This document shows, piece after piece, positions 6,593-47,486 of a DNA stretch of 64,000 bases; the first letter of the stretch is position 1, and the number at the start of each line of letters is the position of its first letter. Where the stretch lies: assembly GCA_964576435.1 (NCBI GenBank), contig CAZNUP010000001.1:162345-226344 (forward strand), read 5' to 3'. Made by a program: the position numbers and the translations under genes. The notes beneath the pieces are model-generated. The model saw nothing but the letters and a program-made list of their open reading frames with translations. It searched no databases and had not been told where the DNA came from. Origin of the DNA: an uncultured Gammaproteobacteria bacterium (GTDB lineage: Bacteria; Patescibacteriota; Microgenomatia; JAMCZE01).

Positions 6593-6642
6593 GGATCTCG
6601 AGGTAATTAGAGCTTGATATCTCTGTCCGCCTCTTGAAATGC

Positions 6643-7176: not shown

Positions 7177-7189
7177 TCTTATCTGTATT

Positions 7190-9025: not shown

Positions 9026-9106
9026 AGAGGGCCTTCAAGGCGGATTGTACCACTTGAAATTCTTTCCACTAAGAGCTAATAATATTAGCGAAGAACTGAA
9101 TATTTA

Positions 9107-18173: not shown

Positions 18174-18594
18174 CGTATTTATTTATAGTAATCGTTTTGG
18201 TAGCTGTGTTGGCCCACTGAAGTGTGACCGTATTTCCTGTTGCAGAATAGTTAATAACGCTTCCAGAGGCAGTTGCAAAACTAATTGCTTGACTTGGAAA
18301 AGCTACACTTGAAAACCTAGTATTAGCTGGTAAGCTAACCACAAATCCCTCAGGTATTAATGTATAGCTAGTTGTTCCAAAAGCAACGCCTGATGGAGTG
18401 GCGTTAACTCCATCGTTTTCCCCAGTCATTGATTTAAGTTGTTGTGACCTAAGGTCAGTAATTAATGTATTTGTAGCAGACGTCAAGGATGTTGCACCCT
18501 GAGGTTGAAGTACATTAATATAAACAAAAGATAATAAAATCCCAGTTATAGCGGCAGTTACTAAAACCTCGATCAGTGTGAAGCCATTTTTCAT
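18151..18594 (-). CDS. prepilin-type pilin
   Basis: MKNGFTLIEVLVTAAITGILLSF carries G|FTLIEV. 147 aa. Confidence 0.75.
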   Translation of the reverse strand: MKNGFTLIEVLVTAAITGILLSFVYINVLQPQGATSLTSATNTLITDLRSQQLKSMTGENDGVNATPSGVAFGTTSYTLIPEGFVVSLPANTRFSSVAFPSQAISFATASGSVINYSATGNTVTLQWANTATKTITINKYGVITNVN

Positions 18595-18595
18595 T

Positions 18596-20023
18596 TTAAT
18601 CTAGTGTGCTATGAATAATTCCAAGACCCTCAGTTCCTTTGTGCTTTTGCGCTTCAGTAAATCCAGCATCTGTGTAAATTGGTAAAGTAAAGCTAAATGT
18701 TGCCCCCTTGCCCTTGCCCTCCGATTGGGCGTCAATCGTTCCATTGTGAAGTTCCACAATGGATTTGCTTATAAATAATCCAAGTCCCGTTCCTTGTGCC
18801 GCGTTCTGGTTTGTAATGTAAGAACCTTTGACTAGGCCAAATTTTTGGAAAAGTTTTGGAATATCATTTGAATCTAACCCTTCACCATTGTCAGTTACGT
18901 GAATCCCTACAAACTTTTCATTAAAGTCACACCAAATTTTTACCCACCCACCTTGTTTAGTAAATTTCAAAGAATTACCAATGAAGTTGATTAGTACTTC
19001 TTTAATTTTGTCCGAGTCAGCAAGTACAGGGGGTAGTGGATTTTTACCCGCCTCATTATTAATTGTGATCCCAAGTTCGTCAGCTCTTGGTTTAACTTCA
19101 GCTATAACCTCGTTAACAAAGTTAGCTACATCCAGCTTTTGCATGTCAACTGACAATTTTCCTGATTCAATTCGAGAGACATTAAGAAGGTCATTAACTA
19201 ATTTAATAAGTCTGTCTGTTGAGACATAAGCTCTTTCCAAATAATATTTTTGTTTGTCTGTAATATTTCCGCCCCTTCCAGCAATTGCCATCCACAAATA
19301 AGATTTAATAGCTGTCATTGGAGTTCTAAGTTCATGTGAAGCAACAGAGACGAATTCACTTTTTAGTTTATCAAGCTCATGGAGCCTATTATTTGCTTGG
19401 TCAAGTTTTTGTGAAGTTTGCTCTAAGTTTGAGTATAGCTCCGCATTTTGCACTGCAATGGCAACTATATCTGTAAAACCGCTAAGAAGTTCAAGTTCAG
19501 TCTCTTTTACTTCTGAATAGCCTTTAACCATACTGAATATGACTACTCCCACTGATTTGCCTTTTAATAAAATAGGCAGAATCATACTCGTTTTAATTCC
19601 CGATGCTTCTTGGTTAGTCCTCGCTTCCTGAGGAGATAGCGGAGGTGTCAGAATATCTTTCCAGTCAGTTGTTACATATTTTTTTTGATCTAAAAATGCA
19701 CGCACACAATAATTTTCTGTTTGATCAATTGGAATGACTATTTTTTCAAAAGGTATAGCAGATGCCGCCGTTGCAGCTTTTGCTTCAGGGGTTTGGGACA
19801 AGGATACTCTTTTTAAACCGCCAGACTCTTTGTCATAAAGAGATAAAACAATTATTCTATAGCCAAGATTTAGATAGCCAAGCTCGCTTAAAAGGCTATC
19901 ACAAATTTTCTGGGAGACCTCATTAAAATCCAGAGTGTCTAAGACAACTTTGGAGATTTTCCATAGTGCCTTGGCTAAGTCTTTGGACACAACTTCATCT
20001 TGGGCAGAAGAATCCATGATCAT
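18596..20023 (-). CDS. sensor histidine kinase with N-terminal GAF-like domain
   Basis: HisKA H-box SHELRTPMTAIKSY, an N-box, and a G2 motif GLGLFISKSIVELHNGTI. There are no TM helices, so it is cytoplasmic. Confidence 0.85.
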   Translation of the reverse strand: MIMDSSAQDEVVSKDLAKALWKISKVVLDTLDFNEVSQKICDSLLSELGYLNLGYRIIVLSLYDKESGGLKRVSLSQTPEAKAATAASAIPFEKIVIPIDQTENYCVRAFLDQKKYVTTDWKDILTPPLSPQEARTNQEASGIKTSMILPILLKGKSVGVVIFSMVKGYSEVKETELELLSGFTDIVAIAVQNAELYSNLEQTSQKLDQANNRLHELDKLKSEFVSVASHELRTPMTAIKSYLWMAIAGRGGNITDKQKYYLERAYVSTDRLIKLVNDLLNVSRIESGKLSVDMQKLDVANFVNEVIAEVKPRADELGITINNEAGKNPLPPVLADSDKIKEVLINFIGNSLKFTKQGGWVKIWCDFNEKFVGIHVTDNGEGLDSNDIPKLFQKFGLVKGSYITNQNAAQGTGLGLFISKSIVELHNGTIDAQSEGKGKGATFSFTLPIYTDAGFTEAQKHKGTEGLGIIHSTLD

Positions 20024-32137: not shown

Positions 32138-32252
32138 CTATAGGACAGATAATAAGAATTCAATTGAAAACTTATGGTCTAACTTAGCTATCTTGAAAGT
32201 ATGGTGGGGACTTTCTGTAGCGCTTTATTATTATATAGTTCCGAAATTACGG

Positions 32253-32337
32253 CGGAGGAGGCGAGATTCGAACTCGCGACATCTTGCGACGTGGCGGTTT
32301 AGTAAACCGCTGCACTAGACCACTATGCGACTCCTCC
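32253..32337 (-). tRNA. type II (Ser-like) tRNA with apparent anticodon ACU
   Basis: GGAGGAGTCGCATAGTGGTCTAGTGCAGCGGTTTACTAAACCGCCACGTCGCAAGATGTCGCGAGTTCGAATCTCGCCTCCTCCG. The anticodon stem is GCGGT/ACCGC with loop TTACTAA. The acceptor and T-arm are identical to tRNA-Ser(GGA) at 11245. Confidence 0.55.
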
Positions 32338-32352
32338 AGTTTTTTTGGCGAG

Positions 32353-32439
32353 CGGAGGAGACAGGATTCGAACCTGCGCGAGCCTTGCGGCCCAGAGATT
32401 TAGCAAACCTCCGCAATGGACCAGCTATGCGACTCCTCC
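32353..32439 (-). tRNA. tRNA-Ser(GCU), type II
   Basis: GGAGGAGTCGCATAGCTGGTCCATTGCGGAGGTTTGCTAAATCTCTGGGCCGCAAGGCTCGCGCAGGTTCGAATCCTGTCTCCTCCG. The anticodon loop is TTGCTAA. Confidence 0.75.
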
Positions 32440-33925: not shown

Positions 33926-34363
33926 GTGAGAATTGAAAATCGTCAAGCTCGATATGACTATGAGATTCTTGAAAAATTCGAAGCCGGCATAAATCTTTTA
34001 GGTCCGGAGGTTAAATCTATCAGGGAAAACGAAATTTCCTTAAATGAATCCTTTGTCCACATGCGGGACGGTCAAGCATATCTTGTTAATGCTCACATCC
34101 ACCCTTACCAAAATTCGGCTCTTTCAATTAGTCCAACAAGAACAAGAAAACTTCTCCTACACAAAAAAGAATTAACTCATTTAAATTCAAAAATCGCCGC
34201 CACTGGTTTGACCCTAATTCCACTAGTGCTGTATAATAAAGGTAACATTTTTAAGCTCGAAGTCGCTTTGGCGAAGGGCAAGAAAAAATGGGATAAGCGC
34301 GAAGCGATCAAAAAACAAACCATGAATAGGGAAGTAGAAATCGCTTTACGAGATAAATCTTAA
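33926..34363 (+). CDS. smpB: SsrA-binding protein SmpB
   Basis: NRQARYDYEILEKFEAGINLLGPEVKSIR...AHIHPY...RTRKLLLHKKEL is the canonical SmpB sequence, and ssrA follows directly. Confidence 0.9.
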   Translation: MRIENRQARYDYEILEKFEAGINLLGPEVKSIRENEISLNESFVHMRDGQAYLVNAHIHPYQNSALSISPTRTRKLLLHKKELTHLNSKIAATGLTLIPLVLYNKGNIFKLEVALAKGKKKWDKREAIKKQTMNREVEIALRDKS

Positions 34364-34368
34364 TTCCT

Positions 34369-34789
34369 GGGGATGTACGAATCGCTGGGAGAGCACTTTG
34401 AAAACTGCAAGCCGAAGATGATAGCTAGAATTCGTTAAAAACGCTATCAAAAACTTAAGTGCTGGAACACAATCCACACTGACTGCGTATCTGGAGAAAC
34501 TCCAGAAGAAAGCCGAATTGGCTTTCAACGCTAACTTCAAGGCGCAAGCCCAAGTTTTAGCTTACGCGTAAAGTCTGTTTCATAAATCCTCTCTCAGTGG
34601 GATTTTTGAGGCATTATTCAGCTGAGATGCTAACTTAAGGGTTTGGTTTTCCTTTGAGAATATAGACCAGTAACCACGCTATATTTGTCTTGTTAATTCG
34701 ATCGGGTATAGCAAGAATTAGAATTAACTACGCTTGTAGATGTTTAAGGGTCGTTCTAACCATACGGGGCTTCACCGCCCCCATCTCCA
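34369..34789 (+). ncRNA. ssrA: tmRNA (ssrA), ~421 nt, proposed tag peptide ANFKAQAQVLAYA
   Basis: It starts GGGGATG 6 nt after the smpB stop. An internal tag ORF GCT AAC TTC AAG GCG CAA GCC CAA GTT TTA GCT TAC GCG TAA lies at 34530-34571. The 3' tRNA-like end has T-arm GGGGC-TTCACC-GCCCC (34766-34781) and acceptor strand CATCTCC (34782-34788) pairing with the 5' GGGGATG, with discriminator A. No CCA is encoded. Confidence 0.65.
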
Positions 34790-36305
34790 CATGAGGGATT
34801 TTTCTTGGAGAAAGATCGCGCATTAGCTCGATCGGACGGGACAAAGTCGCTGTTCCAAAACCATTTTCTTTGTCGAACGTCAACTTGTCTTCGAAATACA
34901 TCAAAACAATAGCTCTCTTATTTTGCCAATTAGGGTTTTTCCACATATCAACAGGGTTTTCCAATGTTTGGAAAACCAAACTCGAGGCAGTTCCAAATTC
35001 TTTGTCAGAGTAGTGGCGATCTAGTCCTTGTTGCTCTTCAAGCTCTTTCTTTTGGGAAAGTTTACCCTTTAGCTCGTTCTCATAAACTCCAATAAGCTCT
35101 TCGTCTTTTGACTTGATTATTCGAGCCTTCAAAGAAGTGATTTCCGATTCAATGTCATAAATCAATGACTGATCAAGATCCCTTTTTGCCTCAAAGGAGG
35201 TTCTGTGTTGCGCCCAGACGTCTCCTAATACTGCCAACACTAGATCAGTTACTCCTTTGGCTGGCTTGGCACCTTCCATTAAGTCGAGAAGTTGATCATG
35301 CATTTTGTCTCTATGGAGAGTTTTCCAACGCATTGGGCAGCCCAGCTTCTTACAATCATATTTAGGATACTTCTGCTTGCCGTTTCTCCCAGTGCTCCAG
35401 CTCCCTGTTACAGGCCCATTGCAGAGGGAACAGCGCACAAGCCCTCTCAAGGGAAAATCATTACTGTAATCTTTGCGAACCTTAATGATCGGCTTTTTAG
35501 CAAATTTGTTAAGAACTATTGGGTAAAGACTTGGATCAACCAGGCCGTCGTGTTGGCCTTTCCCTAAAGGAATTCCCCAGGGATCATATTCAATCATGCC
35601 AAAATAAAGCGGGTTTTTAAGAATGCCCTGTATTCCATGATGAGAGATATTACTTTTGGCCCCTAGTTTGTAAAGCTCACAGTCAACAAACAGTTTAACC
35701 TCGTCCTGTGTCCGCAGCTCGCCGCTTGCAAATTTTTCAATTGCAGCCTTCCTGACTATAGCGTTGGGGCTTCCGTCTGGTTTCAGGATTTTGCCACGAA
35801 TGGGATCTTTGAAGTTCTTGAGTCCAGGAGGCATGCAGAATGGCCAAAAACCGCTCTCCAGTCGAGCTTTCATCTTTTGAATAACCTGCCTTCTATTCTT
35901 TTGTCTTTCATATTGAGAGGTTGCCGCGGCCACATTTTCGATTAATTCTCCTTCTGGACTATCCTCAAAATTAAAATTCGGACTTTCCAGCTTGGCTCCT
36001 CGCCCCACCAGCTCACTCTTTAACTGAAGATGAACTTTGACATCTCGAGCCAACCTACTCAGATCGTCAAAAATAATCACATAGTTTTCTATCTTATGGA
36101 CTTCAAGATGGGTAATTAACTTCTTCATTCCTGGCCGCTCAAAAAGCCCCCCAGAAACACCATCGTCAGGGAAAACTACCTCGACTTTGTATCCTTTTTC
36201 CCTGGCGTAGTTACGACATCTCCTTTCCTGAGATTCAAGTCCGTGGCCTTCATTGACCTGGCGATCTGAACTTACCCGACAATAAATTAAGCACTTAGTT
36301 TGCAT
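34728..36305 (-). CDS. large serine recombinase (integrase) of an ssrA-integrated island
   Basis: 525 aa. The N-terminal resolvase domain is LIYCRVSSDRQ...GLESQ...R; there is a recombinase domain, a zinc-ribbon Cys cluster (CSLCNG...CKKLGC) and a coiled-coil. The last ~20 codons overlap the 3' tRNA-like domain of ssrA. Confidence 0.85.
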   Translation of the reverse strand: MQTKCLIYCRVSSDRQVNEGHGLESQERRCRNYAREKGYKVEVVFPDDGVSGGLFERPGMKKLITHLEVHKIENYVIIFDDLSRLARDVKVHLQLKSELVGRGAKLESPNFNFEDSPEGELIENVAAATSQYERQKNRRQVIQKMKARLESGFWPFCMPPGLKNFKDPIRGKILKPDGSPNAIVRKAAIEKFASGELRTQDEVKLFVDCELYKLGAKSNISHHGIQGILKNPLYFGMIEYDPWGIPLGKGQHDGLVDPSLYPIVLNKFAKKPIIKVRKDYSNDFPLRGLVRCSLCNGPVTGSWSTGRNGKQKYPKYDCKKLGCPMRWKTLHRDKMHDQLLDLMEGAKPAKGVTDLVLAVLGDVWAQHRTSFEAKRDLDQSLIYDIESEITSLKARIIKSKDEELIGVYENELKGKLSQKKELEEQQGLDRHYSDKEFGTASSLVFQTLENPVDMWKNPNWQNKRAIVLMYFEDKLTFDKENGFGTATLSRPIELMRDLSPRKIPHVEMGAVKPRMVRTTLKHLQA

Positions 36306-36498
36306 TGTTGTCTCCTTTTGATGTTTGCCAGAAGGTTTCTATAACCTCGTTAGATAGAAGGTATAAAAAGTCGAGTATAGACTGGATATCGCTGTCTTTC
36401 ATGTTTTTGGATTTTTCCCCAAGCATCTGCCTCGCTTGGTCAACAGTCACTTTTCGATCCTGACTGCCGTTTTGCCCTGTCCATTTTCCGCTCGGCAT
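36295..36498 (-). CDS. small hypothetical protein (possible recombination directionality factor/excisionase position)
   Basis: 67-aa ORF immediately upstream of, and overlapping, the integrase start. No motif. Confidence 0.25.
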   Translation of the reverse strand: MPSGKWTGQNGSQDRKVTVDQARQMLGEKSKNMKDSDIQSILDFLYLLSNEVIETFWQTSKGDNNAN

Positions 36499-36607
36499 AA
36501 ATCCTCCTGCCTCTCAAAACCCACGGGTTGGATAATGCCGTGTTTAAGATACAGAGGATGTGCCTATGGATAGGCCAAGTCCACCTCGTCTAAGAATGTT
36601 TATTTAA

Positions 36608-36928
36608 CTAATAGAATTCGCTATTTTCTCTCAATATTTCTTCAACCAATGATTTCATGTCCTCCTTTGGCGCTATTTCCGTGTTTAGCCGCCAGTGAAG
36701 GCCTTCTTCACCTCTTCCAGATGGAATTAACAACTGTTTGCCGTCAATCTTGGTTCGGGAAAGACTTGAAATTCTGGCTCCCAGCTGTTTGTCTTTCTGA
36801 TCCAGAGCGCCTGAGATCGTGGTTGTGGTCATTATGTTGGAGTCCAACTCAAGGATGGAAGCTAAGGCCTGAAGTTTCTCCAAGGTGAACTTTCTAAGAG
36901 TGTTTTCGAGAGAGTTATTTTGGTTCAT
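36608..36928 (-). CDS. hypothetical protein
   Basis: 106-aa ORF with no recognised domain. Confidence 0.3.
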   Translation of the reverse strand: MNQNNSLENTLRKFTLEKLQALASILELDSNIMTTTTISGALDQKDKQLGARISSLSRTKIDGKQLLIPSGRGEEGLHWRLNTEIAPKEDMKSLVEEILRENSEFY

Positions 36929-37002
36929 GTAGCCAATTTACCAAAGCATACATTGCTTGTCAAGCATATGGTGAATATCGAGCATAATGACCAAATTCTT
37001 CT

Positions 37003-37221
37003 CTAAGAGGAGATGTCCAAAAGCTCGGATAACTTAATGCCTAAAGCAGTGGCTATCTGATATGCCGTTTTGATTGAAATGTTCCTCCCTTGTTCAATAT
37101 CCCAAAAGTAGGCACGGTGAAGTCCTGCCTTCTCTGCCAATTGTTCTTGAGTTAAGCCCTTCCTCTTCCTAAGAGTCTCTATCCTGTAGCCAAGCTTTGC
37201 ATAAAGATTTTTATAGTTCAT
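37003..37221 (-). CDS. XRE-family HTH transcriptional regulator (repressor-like)
   Basis: LRKRKGLTQEQLAEKAGLHRAYFWDIEQGRNISIKTAYQIATALGIKLSELL. 72 aa, divergent from the DUF4352 gene. Confidence 0.8.
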   Translation of the reverse strand: MNYKNLYAKLGYRIETLRKRKGLTQEQLAEKAGLHRAYFWDIEQGRNISIKTAYQIATALGIKLSELLDISS

Positions 37222-37352
37222 GGCAAGCCTAGACTAGCGGATTGCCAGACTTTTCTTTACCAGACATATCTTGCTTTTTTGCGCCTATTAGGGCTTATTA
37301 TTGGGACGAGAGTTAGAAATAAGAATATAGCCACAAGGAGGTGAATCATTAA

Positions 37353-37931
37353 ATGAAGAAAATATTAAAGTGGGTTGGGATTGTGTTCTTGATATTTATC
37401 GCTCTCGGAGTACTTGGTGCCATCTTTGGAGCTGGCAAGAAAGGCAATCAACAAGTAGCACCAACCAGCCAGACCTCAACTCAAACAGGTCAAGAGACTG
37501 CCCCAACTCAGAGTCCAGAACAAAAAATGGCAGGGCTTAACCAAACTGTTAAGGAAGGTGATCTAGGATTTACAGTCTTAGCAGTTAATAAGCAAAAGAC
37601 ACTCGGAGGTGCCTACACCCAGAAGACAGCTCAGGGGACATATTATGTTGTTACCTTAAAGCTCGACAACACTGGCAAGAAAACTGCCACCTTTGACAGT
37701 TCGATGGCCAAGATCACAGACGATCAAGGCAGAGAATTTGACCGCTCAATTGACGGCCAAACAGCTCTTGGCATGTCAAACGGCAAAGTGGATCTGTTCT
37801 TACAGCAAATCCAACCTGGTCTTTCCTACACTGGAGATTTAGTTTTTGATCTACCTGATCAAGTCAAAAATCCAGTTCTTGTTGTCAAAGATTCACTCTT
37901 TGGCCAGGGGGCGAAGATTAGTTTGGAATAA
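37353..37931 (+). CDS. DUF4352-like secreted/lipoprotein (phage-associated surface protein)
   Basis: Signal/TM, a low-complexity Thr/Gln linker, then GDLGFTVLAVNKQKTLGG...YYVVTLKLDNTGKKTATF...GDLVFDLP, the typical DUF4352 beta-sandwich pattern. Recalled, not searched. Confidence 0.5.
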   Translation: MKKILKWVGIVFLIFIALGVLGAIFGAGKKGNQQVAPTSQTSTQTGQETAPTQSPEQKMAGLNQTVKEGDLGFTVLAVNKQKTLGGAYTQKTAQGTYYVVTLKLDNTGKKTATFDSSMAKITDDQGREFDRSIDGQTALGMSNGKVDLFLQQIQPGLSYTGDLVFDLPDQVKNPVLVVKDSLFGQGAKISLE

Positions 37932-38014
37932 CAAAAAGAAAGCATCAACAGAAGGCTCTAACCATGAGCCTTTTGTTATGGCATAACTTGGATAAGGCGA
38001 TATAATAGGCCAAA

Positions 38015-39094
38015 ATGATAGATCAAAAATATAAGATGACGAGCACCTCGCTTTATAGCTCCAAGATTGAGGATATCGACCTTGGCGAGAGTGGAAGCGG
38101 GTTAACACGACGAGTTTTGAGAGCACAAGTTGTGGAAAACTACAAGGAAAAGGAGAATTCAGTTGAATTTGCCATAATTCATCAAAGACGCGCAAGCAGA
38201 GAAAAACCATGGGAAGATTTAGGAGGGAAAACCCTAGCCAATTTAAAAGCAGGAGAAGCTTCAAAAATGCAGCTTGACACTCAACAAACCAAGAATCTCT
38301 TTGATCATCTCCTTAATCTCTATCGAATTGGGAAAGATGGCGTGCGGATGGGCGAAACAGTTCTGGTTATAGGTGATGAGGATGAGGTTATAAGAACAGA
38401 TAAGGGAAGGGCAAGAATAATCAAGAAATTATTGGATGGAAATCACAGTGAGGAAGTATGGCAGGCTTTAGTCGATGACTATCCAGAGTTGGCTACAAAA
38501 ATGTCATTGGCGAAAATTTACAACGAAAAGAAGAAAGTTGTTGAAGAGTTCGAGGCAAATATTTCAGCTGGAAAAGACGAAAACTACTGGCAGGGTCTTT
38601 TAGAAGCAAACGGTTGGGTTTTTGGAACAAACTATGAAAAGCGGATTGGTGAAAGGCGAGTCAACATTGGCTCTACAGTTGATCATCCACTTGTAACCGA
38701 AGATGGTTGTCTGGAAATAATTGAGATTAAGCGTCCCGATACGGTTTTTTGGAAAACAGACACAGCAGGAGAACTTTATAAGTATAGGGGGAAATATTTA
38801 GTGCCCTCAACCGAATTATCTGGGACAATTAGCCAGGCAACTGGTTATATTCTTGATCTGGAAAAACAAGTTGATGTTACTTCCTGGGCTGCCGATCATG
38901 AAGGTGTAGTTCCTCTCAAACCCCGTTGTGTTGTTATTTTAGGGCGTTCAAATAATTGGGCGCAAGAAGAAATGAATCAATTCAGATTACTAAACGATAG
39001 CCTCCATGGGGTAACTATTCAAACTTTTGATCATCTCCTCCTTCGGGCTAAAAAGGCTCTAGAAATGTTTAAACCTCAAAATACGAATGAATAA
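38015..39094 (+). CDS. candidate Shedu-like defence nuclease (DUF4263-type, PD-(D/E)xK fold)
   Basis: 359 aa. The C-terminal region has VDHPLVTEDGCLEIIEIKRP (a D...E.K nuclease-like core) and the tail PRCVVILGRSNNW...RLLNDSLHGVTIQTFDHLL, resembling the DUF4263 C-terminal signature of SduA proteins. It is a solitary gene inside an integrative island. Confidence 0.45.
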   Translation: MIDQKYKMTSTSLYSSKIEDIDLGESGSGLTRRVLRAQVVENYKEKENSVEFAIIHQRRASREKPWEDLGGKTLANLKAGEASKMQLDTQQTKNLFDHLLNLYRIGKDGVRMGETVLVIGDEDEVIRTDKGRARIIKKLLDGNHSEEVWQALVDDYPELATKMSLAKIYNEKKKVVEEFEANISAGKDENYWQGLLEANGWVFGTNYEKRIGERRVNIGSTVDHPLVTEDGCLEIIEIKRPDTVFWKTDTAGELYKYRGKYLVPSTELSGTISQATGYILDLEKQVDVTSWAADHEGVVPLKPRCVVILGRSNNWAQEEMNQFRLLNDSLHGVTIQTFDHLLLRAKKALEMFKPQNTNE

Positions 39095-39191
39095 TCTTTG
39101 CCGACTTTTAGACAAAATTTTCTCCCCGAAAGCTGCCTTCTGTGATGCAAAGCCACTTTGAGATGTAGAACCTGGAACCAGGGGTCAGCAA

Positions 39192-39207
39192 CTCTCTAAT
39201 TAGAGAG
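39192..39207. repeat. perfect 16-bp palindrome CTCTCTAATTAGAGAG, copy 1
   Basis: Copy 1, with extended context AACTCTCTAATTAGAGAGGAAAGTT. The identical core recurs at 40360, where the flanking 25-nt context matches at about 23 of 25 positions. Confidence 0.8.
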
Positions 39208-39383
39208 GAAAGTTTTCAAGACGAAGCGCTTAAACGACCACTACCTATGGTTTTTGTATTGTTTTTGTGTGTTCTTTGTTTGTTCTGAAGGTGAATACTT
39301 TTATTGTCCTTACAAGACAATTCTAAATTTAGACAAAAGCATGAATCCAACCCAAAAGTGATATAATATGATCTAATTAAATT

Positions 39384-39761
39384 ATGGCAGAGGATCTTGA
39401 AAAGACACAGCCAAAATTGATAGAGCTCATTAAACCAGACATGCACGAGGAGGAGCTCAAAGGTCTGGTAACTCAATTTATTTCTCCTGAGGAGGAAGAA
39501 ATTTTGGGTGGTAAAGAGGAAGCAATTCAAAGAATAACTGACGCAACAGCATATGTAGGCGTGTTTGCGCCAGTGCCAGCTACTTTTGATCTTGCCGCCT
39601 TCAGTGCAGTTAACGCTAGAGGTCTGACTGAAGAACAGACAAATAAGGTGTTAGAGATATGCAAGCGAATGGGTGTGATAGAGGATGTGGAAGGAAGACC
39701 TGGAAGAATGGCAGTTTCCAGAGAAATGGTCGAGATAGCAAAAAACCAGTTTTTAACTTAA
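39384..39761 (+). CDS. hypothetical acidic protein
   Basis: 125-aa ORF, higher GC than its surroundings, co-oriented with the MOSC gene. Confidence 0.35.
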   Translation: MAEDLEKTQPKLIELIKPDMHEEELKGLVTQFISPEEEEILGGKEEAIQRITDATAYVGVFAPVPATFDLAAFSAVNARGLTEEQTNKVLEICKRMGVIEDVEGRPGRMAVSREMVEIAKNQFLT

Positions 39762-39774
39762 AAATTAGCTGACT

Positions 39775-40371
39775 ATGGCGAACAGATCTGAAGTAATTGC
39801 AATCTTTATTTGCCCCGACAAAGGGGAGCCAATGCAGGAATTTGACAGTGTTAGGGCAATCGCAGGCAGGGGGCTTGAAGGGGACAGATATGCCGAGGGC
39901 AAAGGCGCCTACTCCAAATCAAAGCGGGTTACTACTCGACACGCTTCGTTAATAGCCATTGAAGCGATAGACGCAGCGAATTATGAGAACGGAACTGACT
40001 TTTTGCCTTCAGACACCAGGAGAAACATTGTTACCTCTGGAATTGATCTTAATAGCCTAGTTGGTCAAGAGTTCACTGTTGGCGAAGTGAGTATGAAAGG
40101 GGTTGAGCTCTGTGATCCTTGCGCCCGCCCTTCCGCACTTTCTGGAAAGAAAGGGTTCGAGCCCGCATTTCAAAATCGTGGCGGCCTAAGAGCCGAAGTT
40201 CTCACTGATGGTCTAATCAGGAAAGGAGACACATTCAGTGTTCAAATTGGCCCCCGCCATGTTCCCCAGCAACAAAAAGACGGAACTAATCTGATGGTTC
40301 CAGACCACACTGGTTCTGTGGCTGACCATGTAGCAGCAATTCGAGAACAAATGGCGAAACTCTCTAATTAG
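39775..40371 (+). CDS. MOSC domain-containing protein (YiiM/YcbX-like)
   Basis: RGLEGDRYAEGKG...RHASLIAIEA...VGEVSMKGVELCDPCARP carries the MOSC beta-barrel signature with the conserved Cys. The local GC is visibly higher than in neighbouring genes. Confidence 0.6.
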   Translation: MANRSEVIAIFICPDKGEPMQEFDSVRAIAGRGLEGDRYAEGKGAYSKSKRVTTRHASLIAIEAIDAANYENGTDFLPSDTRRNIVTSGIDLNSLVGQEFTVGEVSMKGVELCDPCARPSALSGKKGFEPAFQNRGGLRAEVLTDGLIRKGDTFSVQIGPRHVPQQQKDGTNLMVPDHTGSVADHVAAIREQMAKLSN

Positions 40372-40375
40372 AGAG
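40360..40375. repeat. perfect 16-bp palindrome CTCTCTAATTAGAGAG, copy 2 (overlaps the MOSC stop codon)
   Basis: Context GAAACTCTCTAATTAGAGAGGGAATTT. Confidence 0.8.
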
Positions 40376-40442
40376 GGAATTTAGCCCCTGTGTGCCGAAC
40401 TGTTGTGATGATTTTTGGTTTTTGTTATGATAACTATCAGAT

Positions 40443-40904
40443 ATGTCTGAATCGGCCGAAACTCCTAGTATTGTTGAGATCGGAAAGGGTCAATTTGATC
40501 GGCTAGCTTCAGTTTTGGGACAGCGAGAAGGAAGCAAATACAATTTAGTCGGCTGGGGTGGTTCTACAGCTGATTTGAGGACTTCGGTAGAAGGTAAAGC
40601 ACTTTATCCATCTTCAGCTTTTGCCGTTGTTGCGGAGGGGATTTCTAGGTACAAACGTGGAGAAGAGAGAATGTATGACGACACGGATTCCATGCGTGAG
40701 CTCTCACAAGCTTTGGCAGATGGGTCAGAAGTTTACGGGCAGGCAAAAGAATTAGATGAAACCACACTGAAATCTCAAATAAAGGAATATCTCCAATCTC
40801 ATGGCGGCGTTTATGATGAAAATATTAACTGGCAAGATTTTATTGCAGAGAGAGCAACAAGAATAAAAAATCGGGCCGATCAGATAGATGAAGTTAACAG
40901 ATAA
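40443..40904 (+). CDS. hypothetical protein
   Basis: 153-aa ORF with no recognised motif. Confidence 0.35.
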   Translation: MSESAETPSIVEIGKGQFDRLASVLGQREGSKYNLVGWGGSTADLRTSVEGKALYPSSAFAVVAEGISRYKRGEERMYDDTDSMRELSQALADGSEVYGQAKELDETTLKSQIKEYLQSHGGVYDENINWQDFIAERATRIKNRADQIDEVNR

Positions 40905-41046
40905 TACTTCCTTAATTTAAGTTTCCCTTAAACAAGAGACTTTCTATGTTCCCACCCAAAGCCTCCCAACGTCGTACCAGTTGTCCCAATTTCTAGTGCC
41001 ACGGCCTTCTACAGACGACTAAGTGCGGAGTGTATAGCTAGGTTAG

Positions 41047-41075
41047 GGGGGATGGGCTTTTAAGGCCCATCCCCC
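41047..41075. other. GC-rich 11-bp perfect hairpin GGGGGATGGGC-TTTTAAG-GCCCATCCCCC in a ~420-bp non-coding gap
   Basis: A strong stem in an otherwise AT-rich intergenic region. It contains CATCCCCC, the exact complement of the ssrA 5' end GGGGATG. Confidence 0.5.
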
Positions 41076-41322
41076 ACTCATTCCTGAATAGCTACGTTTA
41101 CTATGGAAGGATGTGATAAAGAAGCGGGGGAAAGAGTTAGATTTTGGCTTGTTGTTAAGCCCTGTTTAATATCTGTTAAAATTGAGCTCCATTTCCAGAT
41201 ATAGGATTCGATCTGGTTCCAACTTTTTTCCCACGTGTCCACAGATAAAGACCAATTAATAAACGTATTCCATACAAATGCGGTTTATTGTAGGCGTAAG
41301 GGTGAGCTGATTACTTGAAAGC

Positions 41323-41676
41323 TTAGTTGTTTCTAGAGTTTTTACCAGGCGAGTTTGAAGGTGGGGTAAATTTTATTTCACGACCTGGAGGGATTTTTAC
41401 AATTCCCAATTTTAGTATTGCGCTTACAACTTCTGGATTGGGTCGAATGTCGTCTTTATTTAAGGTGACTTCTTTATCTTCTCCTGCGTCTAGTATGATA
41501 TTTCCATTAGGGCCAATAGCCTTAACTTTATAGAAGATTCCATTTCGACCCGTGACGGTATCACCAAGCTCATATCCTTCAGTGGGTTGTTCAATTTTAT
41601 CAAATTCACCAGTCCCTAAGAAACCATTCCAACGGATCTCCCAATCGTTCTGTTCCCCTTTTTTCTCTTCTGCCAT
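41323..41676 (-). CDS. hypothetical protein
   Basis: 117-aa ORF with no motif. Confidence 0.3.
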   Translation of the reverse strand: MAEEKKGEQNDWEIRWNGFLGTGEFDKIEQPTEGYELGDTVTGRNGIFYKVKAIGPNGNIILDAGEDKEVTLNKDDIRPNPEVVSAILKLGIVKIPPGREIKFTPPSNSPGKNSRNN

Positions 41677-41822
41677 GCAAAAATTATAATATAACGTAAT
41701 CTCTTTTCAACGACGAATAAATTTAAGTATATTTTCGTTTGACAGATTTATAAAAATATCAAACCATTGGAAAATATATTGTTCTAATCGGTTCCATTGA
41801 ATCTCCTGGAGGTCCACCAAGG

Positions 41823-43736
41823 TTATTTCATATTAATCCCATAAACCTTAGATCCAGAAACTAAGAATATTTTCTTTTCCTCTTCATCCGCAAGGATGAT
41901 CGCTTTCTCCGCATTCTTTATTGTTGGTAACTGATATTGTGCTTGATAAAGTCCTTCCTTATTTACAACCACCACTCTATTATTCATGGCATCCCAAATA
42001 TAAATGTTCTTTTCCTCATCTGAAGAGTACATACTATTAAATGATCCAATTGGAGAAGGAAGGCTTTTAAGTTCCAATTGCTCCGGAGCTCCCGAAGCAA
42101 ATTTCCAAACCGCATTTGGTTCAAACACATAGATAAACCCATCAATTTCCATCCCATTAGCTTCCAATAAATCTAAATTCGTCCCAGGTTGAATGTATGG
42201 AACTGGCTCTCCAAATCCGCCTTCCTCAGTTCCTTGATATTTCCATACCTGACTATTTCCAGGATCGAGAAGGTATAAATTCCCCCCAAAACTAGACATC
42301 GCGGTTATTTCTCCAGAAGAACTGGCATCTTTTGCAATGGTTTTAAAACCTCCACTCGTTGTCAAATCTTTTTTCTTGATTCCAGAAGAGTCGTGAACGT
42401 ATAAATTGTCACTATAAAAATCTACCAAGGAGTTAGATTTAAAGTTTCCACCAGCAACAATAGTTCCAGATTTGTTACTGGTTCCAAGAGAGTAAACACT
42501 GCCATTCTTGCCATCCAGTGCCATGATTGTTCCATCATGCAATTTTGCAGATGTAATGTTTGGGTTGGGTTTTAAAAGTGAGAAGTCATAAAAAGTAGTT
42601 AGGGGAACGCTATTTATATTTCCAGCCCTAGCAATTTCCTGGTCATATTTAGCTACAATTGCCCGAAGTTGATCACCTTCTTTAGATTTAAGATTTTTCC
42701 AATCACTTCCAAAATCTCTTTCGATTTCAGAAACAATCTCCTTTTTCTTATCAACAAGTGATTGTCTGGCAAGTTGATCATTGAGTCCAATTAGTTTTCC
42801 TGAGGCTTCTAAGCTTTCGTTAGCTTCTGCTTGGATTCTTGCCACGTTTTGTGTTTGCACCTCTAAAGATCTTGACCTTAGTTGAAAGGCAATTACAGAC
42901 AAAAGCGTTACGAACGCAATTAGAACTAGGTATAAGGTTTTCTTTGGAGGCGCGCTTTCAAATCCTTTCTCCCGAGCCTGTTTGAGATACATTATATTTT
43001 CTTTTGTCGGTACAAGCTTTGTGAGTCCACTAAATATTCCAGATACCTTAGAAATTTTTCCCCAGTTTGGCGGCGTAGTTGGGAGCGGTTCTTCAACTGA
43101 AGTTGCCTCTTCTTCGATTTTTGTTCCACTTTCCTCCGACTTTTGAGGCATATCATTTTGTTCAATTGATGCTTTAGGGACTTCAGTTTCAACCACTTGG
43201 TCAAATTTCAAAACTAATCCACAGATGTCGGGACTCTCATGTTCTCCTTCAAGGTTGGGAAGTAGTGCATCTCTTATTTCGGTCGGATTTTTGTTACTTT
43301 GATTGGTAAGTTCTGAAAAATTAATCTTTGACATTAGTTTCTCTGTGCCAAGAACTATGACATCATCTTGAGAAAGTGTTCCTGACAAAGTTGGAGCTGT
43401 TAAATTAATAATCTTTCCTTTTCTGATAAGCTTGGTACCACAGCTTCCAAGTGTAGCTAGAGATAAGTTGTTTTCGACAATATTAGCAACCACTAATGAC
43501 AAACTTATGTCACTTCCCAGCTGTTCTCTGATAGAAATTGCTAATTCTTTAGGTGAAACTTGTGGATTTTGGGAAATCGCTTCCTCAATCTTTGTAACAC
43601 TATCTCTTCCAATTTCTAGGTTAACCCTTTCCTTGTCTCCCAATAAAAGAAGCACAATAAAAAAGTTACCAGAGACAATTGTTTGCGCATAAACTCCTTC
43701 GCCAGAACTTCCAGCGATTGCGGCGTGTGACAACAT
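41823..43736 (-). CDS. hypothetical bitopic membrane protein with C-terminal extracytoplasmic beta-rich domain
   Basis: 637 aa. The N-terminal ~150 aa look like the tail of a PP2C/SpoIIE-type fold (weak). A TM helix LYLVLIAFVTLLSVIAF is followed by a long Ser/Gly/Asn-rich C-terminal domain. Confidence 0.3.
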   Translation of the reverse strand: MLSHAAIAGSSGEGVYAQTIVSGNFFIVLLLLGDKERVNLEIGRDSVTKIEEAISQNPQVSPKELAISIREQLGSDISLSLVVANIVENNLSLATLGSCGTKLIRKGKIINLTAPTLSGTLSQDDVIVLGTEKLMSKINFSELTNQSNKNPTEIRDALLPNLEGEHESPDICGLVLKFDQVVETEVPKASIEQNDMPQKSEESGTKIEEEATSVEEPLPTTPPNWGKISKVSGIFSGLTKLVPTKENIMYLKQAREKGFESAPPKKTLYLVLIAFVTLLSVIAFQLRSRSLEVQTQNVARIQAEANESLEASGKLIGLNDQLARQSLVDKKKEIVSEIERDFGSDWKNLKSKEGDQLRAIVAKYDQEIARAGNINSVPLTTFYDFSLLKPNPNITSAKLHDGTIMALDGKNGSVYSLGTSNKSGTIVAGGNFKSNSLVDFYSDNLYVHDSSGIKKKDLTTSGGFKTIAKDASSSGEITAMSSFGGNLYLLDPGNSQVWKYQGTEEGGFGEPVPYIQPGTNLDLLEANGMEIDGFIYVFEPNAVWKFASGAPEQLELKSLPSPIGSFNSMYSSDEEKNIYIWDAMNNRVVVVNKEGLYQAQYQLPTIKNAEKAIILADEEEKKIFLVSGSKVYGINMK

Positions 43737-43791
43737 GGATTAAGTGTATCACTGACTGGCAACCAAGAGCCAGAATTGATACCATGAATCC

Positions 43792-46209
43792 ATGGATTCT
43801 CCACAGTCTGAGCTTACAATACAAGAACTTTTGCAAGTCACCACCAAGTTTCAAAATCTGGCAGATGATACAACCTCTTTTGAATCAGAAAACGGGCGTG
43901 GCAAGATAAGTAGACAAGAAGCTAAAAAGCAGATCATCAAAAAACTCACCCTTCTTGATAAAGAACATACATTTAATCTTCCCCATGGTGCAATCGAGTT
44001 CTTGGAAAAAAGTGACGTCAAATCAGTCGAAACTTGGAAGGTCGCTACCAGTCTCTTGCGCGGACAGCCGGCCCCACTTTTGGACAATAGTGTCCCCGGT
44101 AATCTAGGTGATCTCAAGGAACAAAGACTTAAAGTCCAACTTGGGGCGGAGGCCTCGCGAATAAACGGTCAACTACCTGACGACGTAATTAAAAGATATG
44201 TTCAGGCTCTAAAAGATAGTTACAAATTATCCGATAAACAAGTGGCTGAAGTTGAACAGGAGATAAAGAATTTACGAACCGAGCAGGCAAAAGAATCTCC
44301 ACAAGAAATAGTTGTATCTAATACCAAAGCTGGGAATCGCGATATCCCCGTTTCCGCCCCCTCCTCAAAAGTGGAAGAGATTTCTCTCCAGTCTGACCGA
44401 AAGGATGACTCGCCTTCTAAGGACGACAAGCAAACTAGTCCAAATTCCAAACTTAGTAAACAAACTAAAGAAGCAATCGAGCGAGCCGGCGAAAGAGCTG
44501 AGATGCGAGGATATAATCCAAAGACTGAAACCGGCGCCTATTTAGCTAATCAAGTCTCCTTTGGATTTAGTTATTTAAATGAAATCTGGAATACAAACCC
44601 TGAGGCCATTAGCCAAGCCATTGGAGATAGTGTTTCTTATGGTGAAACTTACGCTGAATCAAAATCTATTTCCAAAAAGATACCTTCTAAAGCAGAACAA
44701 ACTGTTAATCAAGTAGCCCAGGCAGCAGCCGCGGCTTCTGCACTTGTTCGCTCCGAACAAGTTCAAGATGTGGCAGCTCAAACTATTAGTGCTGGCCAAA
44801 TAGGGGCCCGTCGTTTGAAAGATAAAGTTGGTCCCGTAATAATTGGAACGGGAATAGGTGCAGTAGCAGGACTTTTGACTGGTAATCCATTGGCAGTAGC
44901 TGGGGGTGCAGCAGCAGGTGGTTTCATGGGCTACTCTTTAGGTGACGGCAGGACAAGAAGTGTACCACCTTCTCAGGGTGGAGGCAGTCCTTCACCTCAA
45001 TCTAGTAGAAGGCGAGGGGGGATTTTACCAGCCGCAGCCAACCTTGCTAATGCCCAAGCTCTCAAGGGGATAGTAGCATCGCTTGGGGGTGCTGGCTTAG
45101 CTTCCATCGCAGGTTGGATTTTGGTTGGAATAGGAATAGCTATTTTGATTGCTATCCTTGCGATTTTCTTCCTAAACTATTCTTTCCAACCGAGCTCCGA
45201 AGTTCTTGATCTACAAGGTGGTCCACCAATAGTTACGGTTTCCAAAACTGCGGATATTGATGAAATGGGGAATTTTGAGGAAGCTACTGTTCCTCAAAAA
45301 ATAGCCAACTATTCAATCCAAATTTCTGCTCATGAAGGGGATGTAAAAATTTCAGCTAAAGACGATGTTCGTTTTTTTGGAGAATCAGGAACCTTTGACA
45401 AAAGTCAGATGCAAGCAACTACTACCCCCATTACTTGGCCGACTTCAGTAACACCTACCGGTTCCACTGTAGCGTACGGAATTGTAATTCCAGTGAATGC
45501 AGCAAATAGACAAAACCTGAACGATGGGTATTTGGTAAATACTGTAACTATCACAGCCACAGATGAAAATGGTAAATCTGAATCTCGTTCTGCCCAAGCA
45601 ATTATTAAAGTGGGCAATCCACCAGAGGGACATCCATATGGGTTCCCCAAATCAGGAAGCATTAGTTCACTAGATAACGAGCCAATTCCTGCAATTACAG
45701 GCGAGGATGGAAAAGTTTTACCTGCACATGATCATTGTGGCGAAATCCCTTCTCTTGCGGGTTGTATTGGAGGGGGATTGGATATAACTGGTGAGGGTCA
45801 AGTAAAATCTACTGCTGAAGGTTATGTTATCTATAGTCAATTTGATTCACGTCTTGGTGGGGTTGTTTACATCTTGGCGGGAGATCACTCTGCAGCGTTC
45901 CTCCATCTTGCTGAAGAAGGTCTTGCACCTCTTGGAAAGATTAGCAGGGGAGACACTGTCGGTACTGTCTATCCAGGAAAGCTTCCTACCTCATCGGGGC
46001 CACACGTTCACTATCAAGTTTTTGACGGTGGACAAAATGTTTTCTTTAAAAATTCAGCCAGTGTAGGTGCTTGCGAAAATCCAAACGCGATCATTAGCCC
46101 AACAAACGCCCAACAACTAGCTACTAGAAGTATTCCAGCGGGTGCTGATGGCGATGGTACCGGCAATTTTTCTTGCAATATCAGCAACCCACCTGCTGTG
46201 GTAAATTAA
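43792..46209 (+). CDS. large membrane protein with C-terminal M23 (LytM-type) peptidase domain
   Basis: 805 aa: a ~330-aa cytoplasmic coiled region, two Gly-rich TM helices, then a C-terminal LPAHDHCGE...VIYSQFDSRLGGVVYILAGDHSAAFLHLAE...GDTVGTVYPGKLPTSSGPHVHYQVF matching the M23 HxxxD ... HxH architecture. Confidence 0.55.
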   Translation: MDSPQSELTIQELLQVTTKFQNLADDTTSFESENGRGKISRQEAKKQIIKKLTLLDKEHTFNLPHGAIEFLEKSDVKSVETWKVATSLLRGQPAPLLDNSVPGNLGDLKEQRLKVQLGAEASRINGQLPDDVIKRYVQALKDSYKLSDKQVAEVEQEIKNLRTEQAKESPQEIVVSNTKAGNRDIPVSAPSSKVEEISLQSDRKDDSPSKDDKQTSPNSKLSKQTKEAIERAGERAEMRGYNPKTETGAYLANQVSFGFSYLNEIWNTNPEAISQAIGDSVSYGETYAESKSISKKIPSKAEQTVNQVAQAAAAASALVRSEQVQDVAAQTISAGQIGARRLKDKVGPVIIGTGIGAVAGLLTGNPLAVAGGAAAGGFMGYSLGDGRTRSVPPSQGGGSPSPQSSRRRGGILPAAANLANAQALKGIVASLGGAGLASIAGWILVGIGIAILIAILAIFFLNYSFQPSSEVLDLQGGPPIVTVSKTADIDEMGNFEEATVPQKIANYSIQISAHEGDVKISAKDDVRFFGESGTFDKSQMQATTTPITWPTSVTPTGSTVAYGIVIPVNAANRQNLNDGYLVNTVTITATDENGKSESRSAQAIIKVGNPPEGHPYGFPKSGSISSLDNEPIPAITGEDGKVLPAHDHCGEIPSLAGCIGGGLDITGEGQVKSTAEGYVIYSQFDSRLGGVVYILAGDHSAAFLHLAEEGLAPLGKISRGDTVGTVYPGKLPTSSGPHVHYQVFDGGQNVFFKNSASVGACENPNAIISPTNAQQLATRSIPAGADGDGTGNFSCNISNPPAVVN

Positions 46210-46250
46210 TTTAATTAATTTTAACGTGTATAATAAATTAGAAAAATACC

Positions 46251-47486
46251 ATGGCCGAACCACAACCTAGAACACGATCAAAAGAGTCTCTTAATGAAGA
46301 ACAAACTGTCAAGCGACTGGAGTCGATTGATTACAATCCTTGGGCTAGAATTGCCTTAGCGACGAGGTCAATTTCAGGTTACGCCCCAGATGCGAATGCG
46401 TTAAACATGGTATTGGCCGATATCAGGAATAATTCCGACCCGCTTGGGAACCGTCTTTTATTGGTTAGGGAATATCATGAACCATTTCAAAGTGTTCCCA
46501 TTGGGAAATCAGAATTTGAAAAAGTGGCAAGACAAAAAAACTCTTTAATGACATTTGAACAAGCCAGCAGTGTTCGTGATAATTTATCTTTTAATCAAGT
46601 CTGGCAGCAAGCGTGTAAGATAGCGGAAGAAGAAAGGCACACGCCACCTACAGCAGATCCGGTAGAAAATTTCGATTTAGCAGTTTACACAGTTCTTGAT
46701 TACTTTGAACAAGCTGAAAGAGTTAGAAATCTTTCAGCTACCGAAGGAGAGCAGCTTGCTGACCTCCTTCGTAATCAAGCTTACTCTCCAAATATTGTTC
46801 GGCAGAATTATAAAAGCACAATTTCTGGCGATAGTTTAGATATAGCACCTCTTTTTATTCCAAAGGGTGTCTATGCTCGTGGCACAGAGAATAGTGTTCG
46901 TGGTTTCAATGAAAGAGCTTTTATTCGGGATAGAAAAGAAGACATGGGGAAGCTTATGCAGTTAAGAAAAGATCTGGAAACAAAACTAACAACAGGCGCT
47001 GAAGCGGAGCGTGCCAACAAAATTCTTAACTACATAGATTCCCCTGGTTTCCCAGCTAGGGTGGCAGAGTCAGGAGCTCTTTTGCAACAAGGCAGAATTG
47101 AACGAGCTGCTATTTTAAACCTAATTTTAGGGGCCGTATTTGTTGGTGTTGTTTCTGCAGCAACTGAGCACAATCCTGCTGCTGAATTGGGGGCTTTGGG
47201 GTTGTGGACTATACCCGCTGTGTATCTCTTTATGTTTAAATATGAAAAAGTTGGACAAATAATTGAAAAGCTTGGAATATCTTTAAATCGTGGTCCCATA
47301 AGCGTGAGTACTCGTGGCTCTGAATCCGAAACAATATTCCAGACCTCCCCAACTCCCCCTGCCGAGGTGCAACCTAGTCCAGAAGGATCGCGTTCTCCTA
47401 CAACCCCCGACTCCTCTCAAACTCCTCCTGTGGCGGATGTGTTTTCTCAAGGCAAATGGAAGCCATCGCAACGTAGGAGAAATTAA
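46251..47486 (+). CDS. hypothetical protein with C-terminal TM helices and Pro-rich tail
   Basis: 411-aa ORF with no known domain. Confidence 0.35.
   Translation: MAEPQPRTRSKESLNEEQTVKRLESIDYNPWARIALATRSISGYAPDANALNMVLADIRNNSDPLGNRLLLVREYHEPFQSVPIGKSEFEKVARQKNSLMTFEQASSVRDNLSFNQVWQQACKIAEEERHTPPTADPVENFDLAVYTVLDYFEQAERVRNLSATEGEQLADLLRNQAYSPNIVRQNYKSTISGDSLDIAPLFIPKGVYARGTENSVRGFNERAFIRDRKEDMGKLMQLRKDLETKLTTGAEAERANKILNYIDSPGFPARVAESGALLQQGRIERAAILNLILGAVFVGVVSAATEHNPAAELGALGLWTIPAVYLFMFKYEKVGQIIEKLGISLNRGPISVSTRGSESETIFQTSPTPPAEVQPSPEGSRSPTTPDSSQTPPVADVFSQGKWKPSQRRRN

Follow-up and report, generated by a model that had tools for sequence, protein, structure and literature searches.

Introduction

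Shedu is a single-gene anti-phage defence system, and KELShedu is a two-component system in which an adjacent gene provides a partner (KELA) that binds double-stranded DNA (dsDNA). The present study concerns a Shedu gene, sduA, in a 64-kb stretch of contig CAZNUP010000001.1 (hereafter, the window, i.e. the entire stretch analysed), where it is carried on an island inserted at the transfer-messenger RNA (tmRNA) gene, ssrA. A preliminary description of this DNA regarded the gene as a solitary, highly divergent Shedu (DUF4263) candidate on an ssrA mobile island and proposed as checks a profile search against PF14082, the PADLOC models, a comparison of an AlphaFold model with SduA structures by Foldseek, and the conservation of the E...K residues among homologs.

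The closest described system is SduA of Bacillus cereus B4264 (8TI8 and 8TI9), the archetype of Type 1A, which is the largest Shedu class and contains 1,684 of 7,687 homologs (Gu et al., bioRxiv 10.1101/2023.08.10.552793). According to the same report, the nuclease motifs of this protein comprise E204 (motif I), D249 (motif II), E264/K266 (motif III), and Q295 (motif IV); immunity is lost in the D249 and E264 mutants, an arginine of the N-domain (R29) is essential for immunity, and both Tyr315 and the GGK motif (K238) are needed for activation. EndoMS is given there as the closest non-Shedu fold. The SduA protein of Escherichia coli (8PS4 and 8PS5; Loeff et al., bioRxiv 10.1101/2023.08.10.552762) combines a C-terminal PD-(D/E)xK domain with an N-terminal clamp domain. 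Defence repertoires in the candidate phyla radiation (CPR) have previously been surveyed with standard tools (PMC12259885). As for the insertion site, t(m)RNA islands have been catalogued by Islander/TIGER, and serine integrases were seen at t(m)RNA genes in only 14 of 297 elements, a choice of site that was described as not reported before and as requiring proof (Mageeney et al. 2020, PMC7192596).

We consider it probable (roughly 0.87) that the window gene is a complete and, as predicted from its residues, apparently active Type 1A Shedu nuclease gene that is carried as cargo of a serine-recombinase ssrA island in a Patescibacteria-type host.

Domain organization and classification of the window SduA

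The gene and its domains are as follows.

38015..39094, + strand: sduA, complete Type 1A Shedu gene with ATG start, 359 amino acids (aa), identified by its open reading frame (ORF), Pfam, PADLOC, alignment to 8TI8, and Foldseek
38042..38341, + strand: SduA_N (PF21407), predicted N-terminal sensor/regulatory domain (aa 10-109) of the sPC4/Whirly type of Type 1A Shedu, including R32
38342..38572, + strand: helical linker domain (approximately aa 110-186), with helices at 130-141, 145-155, and 157-182 in the AlphaFold2 (AF2) model
38573..39040, + strand: SduA_C/DUF4263 (PF14082) PD-(D/E)xK nuclease domain (aa 187-342), defined by Pfam, by motifs located via 8TI8, and by Foldseek

The ORF is present exactly as it had been described, in position, strand, start codon, and length, and the two peptides that had been quoted from it (...TEDGCLEIIEIKRPDT... 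and ...CVVILGRSNNWAQEEMNQFRLLNDSLHGVTIQTFDHLLL...) are both found in its translation. It is full length and contains no frameshift. The start codon agrees with the N-termini of 12 close homologs in an alignment, and the length and termini of the protein agree with those of 40+ homologs. The protein was located on an NCBI contig of 709,729 bp, and identical proteins are encoded on contigs from four separate sequencing runs.

In the Pfam search, SduA_C/DUF4263 matched aa 187-342 with 67.6 bits, covering positions 2-159 of the 159 positions of the profile, and SduA_N matched aa 10-109 with 70.7 bits (E = 1.3e-19; profile positions 1-98 of 102), the cut-off being 27 bits in both cases. The two matches are significant and do not overlap. 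The SduA_N match overturns the earlier view that the N-terminal half is unrelated to anything recognized. In PADLOC, 21 models matched, all of them SduA models, with PDLC00385 as the best (E = 1.3e-48, aa 64-349). These scores place the similarity to Shedu far beyond chance.

A phmmer search of PDB sequences returned B. cereus SduA (8TI8) as the best match (E = 1.3e-13), aligned essentially from end to end (query 5-351 to chain 6-379), and E. coli SduA (8PS4) in the nuclease domain only (aa 221-353, E = 6e-4). An AF2 model built from 25 homologs had a mean predicted local distance difference test (pLDDT) score of 85.6. When this model was compared with the PDB by Foldseek, the top eight matches were all Shedu structures, the best being 8PS5 (E = 2e-10), and the nuclease domain of 8TI9 was superposed with a TM score of 0.77 and a root mean square deviation of 3.5-3.7 A. 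The structures of EndoMS/NucS ranked after Shedu (5GKE and 2VLD, E ~2e-3). In the model, the N-domain adopts a beta-beta-beta-beta-alpha order of secondary structure (strands at 4-12, 15-25, 31-40, and 49-58 and a helix at 89-108), and the predicted N-domain and helical linker fit the published description of the sPC4/Whirly type of Type 1A.

The prediction that the window gene encodes a Shedu/DUF4263 PD-(D/E)xK nuclease, as first suggested in the preliminary description, is therefore borne out in full by the profile matches, the alignment to solved structures, and the fold comparison. B. cereus SduA has the same three parts, i.e. SduA_N, a linker (residues 118-170, corresponding to the linker of the window protein), and the DUF4263 nuclease, and is likewise a single-gene system, but the identity between the two proteins is only ~22%, and the B. 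cereus protein comes from a Firmicute host whereas the window protein very probably belongs to a CPR-type bacterium. The E. coli protein shares the C-terminal PD-(D/E)xK domain (aa 221-353), but its N-terminal clamp domain is not matched, the 8PS4 alignment being limited to the nuclease domain; since the N-domains are unrelated, the DNA-end clamp mechanism, as outlined for the E. coli protein, is not transferable to the window SduA.

Conserved catalytic and sensor residues

Functional residues were mapped through the 8TI8 alignment with a PDB chain offset of +2, and the register was confirmed by the E-to-A difference between 8TI8 and 8TI9. The residues of motifs I-IV and the N-domain arginine of B. 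cereus SduA are all conserved in the window protein.

38108-38110, + strand: R32 (B. cereus R29), N-domain arginine on a putative nucleic-acid-binding surface
38579-38581, + strand: E189 (B. cereus E204), motif I
38681-38683, + strand: D223 (B. cereus D249), motif II
38723-38725 and 38729-38731, + strand: E237 and K239 (B. cereus E264 and K266), motif III
38834-38836, + strand: Q274 (B. cereus Q295), motif IV

All six residues are invariant in 13 close homologs. In an alignment of 25 sequences, extending down to 23% identity, no variation is seen at E189, E237, K239, or Q274, and the Asp at position 223 is retained in at least 90%. The D...E.K core proposed earlier was thus correct in its E and K (E237 and K239), but the catalytic Asp is D223 in 'TVDHPL' and not D230 in 'EDGCLE', which is not conserved. 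Because the SduA_N domain, the motif residues, and R32 are all present, the window SduA is, as judged from its sequence, a Type 1A Shedu, i.e. a member of the class of the B. cereus archetype.

Homologs and absence of a conserved partner gene

In total, 43 homologs of the window SduA were found in the databases. The closest (P0002-P0029, from Patescibacteria, Zixibacteria, and metagenomes) share 47-60% identity over 96-99% of the length and contain the same two Pfam domains, but their genomic contexts differ from that of the window island. A further scan of species-representative genomes with a 13-sequence alignment yielded 122 relatives, which are distributed in the CPR (Shapiro-, Roizman-, Levy-, Pacei-, Falkow-, and Saccharibacteria, and Parcubacteria) and in many other phyla. 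NCBI already lists one of the close homologs, P0010 (57% identity), under the name 'Shedu anti-phage system protein SduA domain-containing protein [Patescibacteria group bacterium]'. Relatives are common across Patescibacteria. The SmpB protein of the window is closest to proteins labelled Patescibacteria group bacterium. From this and from the contig of 709,729 bp, the host is, by indirect evidence, very probably a CPR bacterium.

The gene of the closest homolog (P0002, 60% identity; locus L005, 5132-14084, on a 590-kb contig) lies within an hsdM-AAA-hsdS-sduA-hsdR operon, and that of P0011 (locus L006, Zixibacteria) stands alone beside an RND efflux operon; the two contexts are unrelated to each other. 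In a Pseudomonadales-labelled locus (L071, 8286-15837), the order is hsdM-sduA-hsdS-NYN-hsdR. An sduA gene is thus found in a defence context, inside a type I restriction-modification operon, in two unrelated genomes (L005 and L071).

The co-occurrence of the island genes with Shedu was examined by tblastn of every island protein against 90 loci outside the window's own population, ~80 of which contain Shedu. In these 90 loci, orf106, the DUF4352 gene, orf125, the MOSC gene, and orf153 had no match, and the XRE-family regulator gene had matches in only three. Since no island neighbour co-occurs with Shedu across related loci, the window Shedu is a single-gene system without a conserved partner, as the word 'solitary' in the preliminary description had implied, and the lack of a conserved neighbour argues against a two-gene system of the KELShedu type. 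A possible Shedu regulatory module formed by the XRE and DUF4352 genes was ruled out in the same way, because these genes do not co-occur with Shedu elsewhere.

Structure and insertion site of the island

The following features define the island.

34369..34792, + strand: tmRNA gene (ssrA), integration target of the island (Rfam RF00023, 73.5 bits)
34728..36305, - strand: large serine recombinase, the island integrase, 525 aa (Pfam Resolvase, 92.8 bits)
34791..41235, no strand: inserted island of ~6.45 kb, with an exact left end and a right end bracketed to 40905..41822 (best guess, ~41100-41240)

A locus without the island, L088, whose SmpB is 81% identical to that of the window, has the backbone order NUDIX-ComF-SmpB-tmRNA-119aa(-)-610aa(-)-M23 peptidase. 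In the window, NUDIX-ComF-SmpB-tmRNA is followed by an insert of ~6.5 kb and then by 117aa(-)-637aa(-)-M23. The DNA homology with L088 runs to position 34790 of the window and resumes at 41833. The left junction is located at 34790-34792, at the CCA end of the tmRNA, where the letters are ...CATCTCCACCAaatatc / ...CATCTCCACCAaat in L088 and ...CATCTCCACAtgaggg in the window; that the two sequences part at 34790 places the insertion at the CCA end of ssrA. These data bear out the ssrA mobile-island context reported earlier. The description of an integrase-bounded element was correct in that a recombinase is present at the tmRNA-proximal end; the enzyme is a large serine recombinase and not a tyrosine integrase. 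Its Zn_ribbon_recom match (24.6 bits) falls just below the Pfam gathering cut-off of 25.3 bits. The recombinase ORF overlaps the 3' end of the tmRNA gene by 65 nt, so that its last 20 codons lie within that gene.

Like the islands of Islander/TIGER (Mageeney et al. 2020, PMC7192596), the element entered ssrA at its 3' end, and its integrase gene borders on the target in the opposite orientation, with the tmRNA left intact save for the encoded CCA. The window island differs from them in using a large serine recombinase instead of a tyrosine integrase and in that its far end is marked neither by a displaced tmRNA fragment nor by a long direct repeat. A repeat search of 34300..46500 detected no copy of the tmRNA 3' end, which is expected because a serine integrase needs only a short crossover core. 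With no such copy to mark attR, the right end is given as a bracket. The GC content is 0.41-0.49 in the island genes and drops to 0.39 from ~41100, and a candidate inverted arm at 41209-41234 is a marginal match to 34793-34818 (16 of 26 positions; shuffle p ~0.04, with no correction for the number of offsets compared). When the right-end region was compared with the sister islands (L093, L071, and L014) by short-word blastn, only chance-level matches were obtained. Searches for closer empty sites via the SmpB homologs P0053, P0047, and P0059 yielded contigs that end before or within the tmRNA gene or that differ in synteny. No homology was detectable between orf117 (41323..41676) and the 119-aa gene at the same position in L088 (E = 0.3), and the assignment of orf117 to the backbone is consequently based on GC content alone.

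Some further observations concern the two ends. At 34788-34794, the tmRNA ends in ...CATCTCCA-CA at the junction, whereas the island-free L088 encodes ...CATCTCCA-CCA; the insertion appears to have disrupted the encoded CCA, which would then need post-transcriptional completion. Near the opposite end, a very stable hairpin is present at 41045-41078, in non-coding DNA where the island probably ends. It has an 11-bp perfect stem (GGGGGATGGGC/GCCCATCCCCC) and no T-tract, with a folding free energy (dG) of -30.8 kcal/mol in a 56-nt context (z = -4.3). The stem includes GGGGATG, which is identical to the 5' acceptor strand of the tmRNA.

Related recombinases at tmRNA and tRNA genes

Recombinases related to that of the window were found at t(m)RNA genes in three other loci, and the four proteins are 31-47% identical to one another.

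Window: recombinase 34728-36305 (-), tmRNA 34369-34792 (+); cargo, Shedu alone
L093: recombinase 7598-9175, tmRNA 9108-9248; 46% identity to the window recombinase; 3' end, overlap of 68 nt; cargo, Mrr-type nuclease, DUF4352 gene, and a second small recombinase
L071: recombinase 16829-18397, tmRNA 18354-18769; 42% identity to the window recombinase; 3' end, overlap of 44 nt; cargo, Shedu inside a type I restriction-modification operon
L014 (Parcubacteria): recombinase 5636-7423, tRNA 5672-5742; 31% identity to the window recombinase; ORF extending across the tRNA gene (overlap of 107 nt); cargo, Shedu at a distance of 2.5 kb

At the three tmRNA sites, the ORF of the recombinase runs 13-21 codons into the tmRNA gene, and its tail (VEM...) is the antisense of the acceptor strand CATCTCCAC; the overlaps span 34728-34792 in the window, 9108-9175 in L093, and 18354-18397 in L071. 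Because the ORF reads into the tmRNA gene when the island is integrated, the C-terminal tail of the recombinase would change upon excision. The chances appear about even that these enzymes represent a distinct clade that targets the extreme 3' ends of tmRNA and tRNA genes in distant lineages labelled as Patescibacteria/Parcubacteria and Pseudomonadales, with ORFs extending 13-34 codons into the RNA gene and with small islands that carry interchangeable, nuclease-based defence cargo. The metagenomic contig bearing the L093 sister island also contains a LOOT RNA at 2977-3100 (+; RF03000, 60.8 bits).

Proposed function and alternative explanations

How the protein oligomerizes, how it is activated, what triggers it, and that it acts against phage at all are proposed here from its homology with B. 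cereus SduA. The C-terminal DUF4263 domain would assemble SduA into a homotetramer that is kept inactive, with D223 of motif II carried by a loop at a distance from E189/E237/K239/Q274. This autoinhibition would be imposed by the helical linker and the N-terminal domain of the sPC4/Whirly type, which contains R32; together they would act as an infection sensor, probably by binding nucleic acid of the invader. Sensing would allow the active site to be completed, and invading dsDNA would then be cut. The gene itself is cargo of the ~6.5-kb island, which the large serine recombinase inserted right at the 3' terminus of the tmRNA gene in a Patescibacteria-type host with a small genome.

Several results weigh against this proposal. 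The fold of the N-domain is judged from the profile match and the AF2 secondary structure only, and the identity of the window SduA to the solved Shedu proteins is only 16-22%. Moreover, the window protein has D294 at the position of the octamer-interface Tyr315 of B. cereus SduA, and in the motif II loop, where G212-E213-R214 lines up with GGK (K238), a conserved E213-R214-R215 is present instead. As E213 and R215 are invariant across the subfamily (13 close homologs), i.e. the substitutions are common to the whole subfamily, they are lineage traits and not signs of decay, and the Tyr315 and GGK elements are features of the archetype mechanism that do not define the family. Their absence means that the tetramer-to-octamer switch cannot simply be assumed; it lowers the confidence in an identical activation route but not in Shedu membership.

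The same low identity, together with the lack of any NCBIfam match, might be taken to favour a highly divergent Shedu with a novel, unclassified N-terminal sensor domain, as put forward in the preliminary description. The NCBIfam result is ascribed to the content of that library and was not counted against membership. The N-terminal 100 residues match the canonical SduA_N of the B. cereus archetype far above the cut-off and align residue for residue with the B. cereus protein, the functional Arg included, and all close homologs have the same two Pfam domains, so this explanation is very improbable. It is hardly credible, too, that the gene is a decaying or inactive relic. Such a relic would account for the solitary position of the gene, in contrast to the closest homolog with its place inside a type I restriction-modification operon, and for the missing equivalents of Tyr315 and GGK, but the uninterrupted full-length frame, the intact catalytic motifs and sensor Arg, the subfamily-wide conservation of the substitutions, and the recovery of an identical protein in four sequencing runs all contradict it. 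An unclassified PD-(D/E)xK nuclease, which had been the fallback in the preliminary description, or a NucS/EndoMS-like repair endonuclease can for practical purposes be set aside: 5GKE and 2VLD do appear in the fold search, but their scores fall 5-7 orders of magnitude behind those of the Shedu structures, Shedu-specific profiles span the whole protein, and the Shedu fold has itself been published as resembling EndoMS.

A different kind of explanation accepts the Shedu nuclease and supposes that it serves the mobile island, either by excluding rival elements or linear DNA or by stabilizing the island, with phage defence being incidental. The position of sduA as island cargo, next to an XRE repressor of the phage type and to a DUF4352 gene whose product weakly matches a superinfection-exclusion-like family, would suit such a role, as would the Shedu or Mrr nucleases carried with recombinases of the same clade in L071, L014, and L093 and the general block of linear-DNA propagation by E. 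coli Shedu, as outlined in the report on that protein. This service is, however, barely separable from defence, because element-borne defence genes normally protect both host and element, and close homologs also occur in non-mobile contexts, e.g. beside the efflux operon of the Zixibacteria locus. We regard this explanation as unlikely, and a Type 1A Shedu defence nuclease carried by the ssrA island is the preferred interpretation.

Other genes and features of the island

In addition to sduA and the recombinase gene, the island carries the following features.

36295..36498, - strand: orf67, 67 aa, overlapping the start of the recombinase gene; no Pfam family
37003..37221, - strand: XRE-family helix-turn-helix regulator, 72 aa (HTH_3, E = 1.3e-13; PADLOC 'control protein', E = 5e-18; phage repressor PHROGs)
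37353..37931, + strand: DUF4352 membrane protein, 192 aa (PF11611, 84.1 bits), a phage-type accessory gene
37978..38006, + strand: promoter-like site (ATGGCA-17-TATAAT) located 8 nt before the start codon of sduA and matching the consensus at 10 of 12 positions
39384..40904, + strand: other cargo, i.e. orf125, a MOSC-domain protein (39775..40371; E = 4e-10), and orf153

A counterpart of orf67 with 41% identity is located directly upstream of the L093 recombinase gene (L093 7417-7563; tblastn), and orf67 is a candidate directionality or regulatory factor. The XRE and DUF4352 genes form a divergent pair upstream of sduA, as previously stated. The DUF4352 protein matches phrog_806 over its full length (E = 2.8e-30) and, weakly, the superinfection-exclusion-like phrog_8545 (E = 4.6e-5). 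A DUF4352 gene is also present in the sister island L093 (4021-4623), and genes of this kind may recur as accessories in such islands.

The promoter-like site upstream of sduA is, from its letters, at best a weakly indicated candidate for the gene's own promoter. Promoter-like sites in the region number 12, as compared with 8.3 +/- 2.9 in shuffled sequences, i.e. not above chance. Both an own promoter of sduA and an operon link between the DUF4352 gene and sduA were rejected, as the promoter and terminator scans were not above chance.

For orf125 and orf153, no significant family matches were obtained in the profile libraries. The MOSC gene, which lies between them, has the highest GC content of the island (0.486). 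A perfect 16-nt palindrome, CTCTCTAATTAGAGAG, is found at 39192-39207 and 40360-40375 as part of a direct repeat of 25 nt (92% identity). These are its only two copies in the 64 kb (0 expected), and they flank the module of orf125 and the MOSC gene that directly follows sduA; the palindrome may serve as an operator, as a terminator, or in recombination. Elsewhere in the window, two tRNA-Ser genes are arranged in tandem at 32251-32337 (-) and 32352-32439 (-). The anticodon loop of one of them reads UU-ACU-AA, so that the anticodon is ACU and position 34 is A, an unusual arrangement in bacteria; its neighbour has a normal GCU.

Significance

The Shedu interpretation of this gene is confirmed to be right, and its framing as divergent or novel to be wrong. 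The sduA gene itself is an ordinary member of a known family, which would be annotated as Shedu by standard pipelines (Pfam, PADLOC, and the NCBI PGAP naming of close homologs) and whose architectural class is not only the largest but also the best studied. It adds one more defence gene to a genome of ~0.7 Mb, in which keeping each gene is costly. As its subfamily keeps the catalytic and sensor residues without Tyr315 and GGK, it could be used to test the generality of the octamer switch. The more unusual part of the island is its insertion enzyme. The family of serine-recombinase ssrA islands is a modest, separate lead that offers a natural case of a site choice reported to be rare. If the recombinase clade is indeed as proposed, it would be a recurring, clear-cut example of t(m)RNA site use and would provide a route for ultra-small genomes to swap defence genes.

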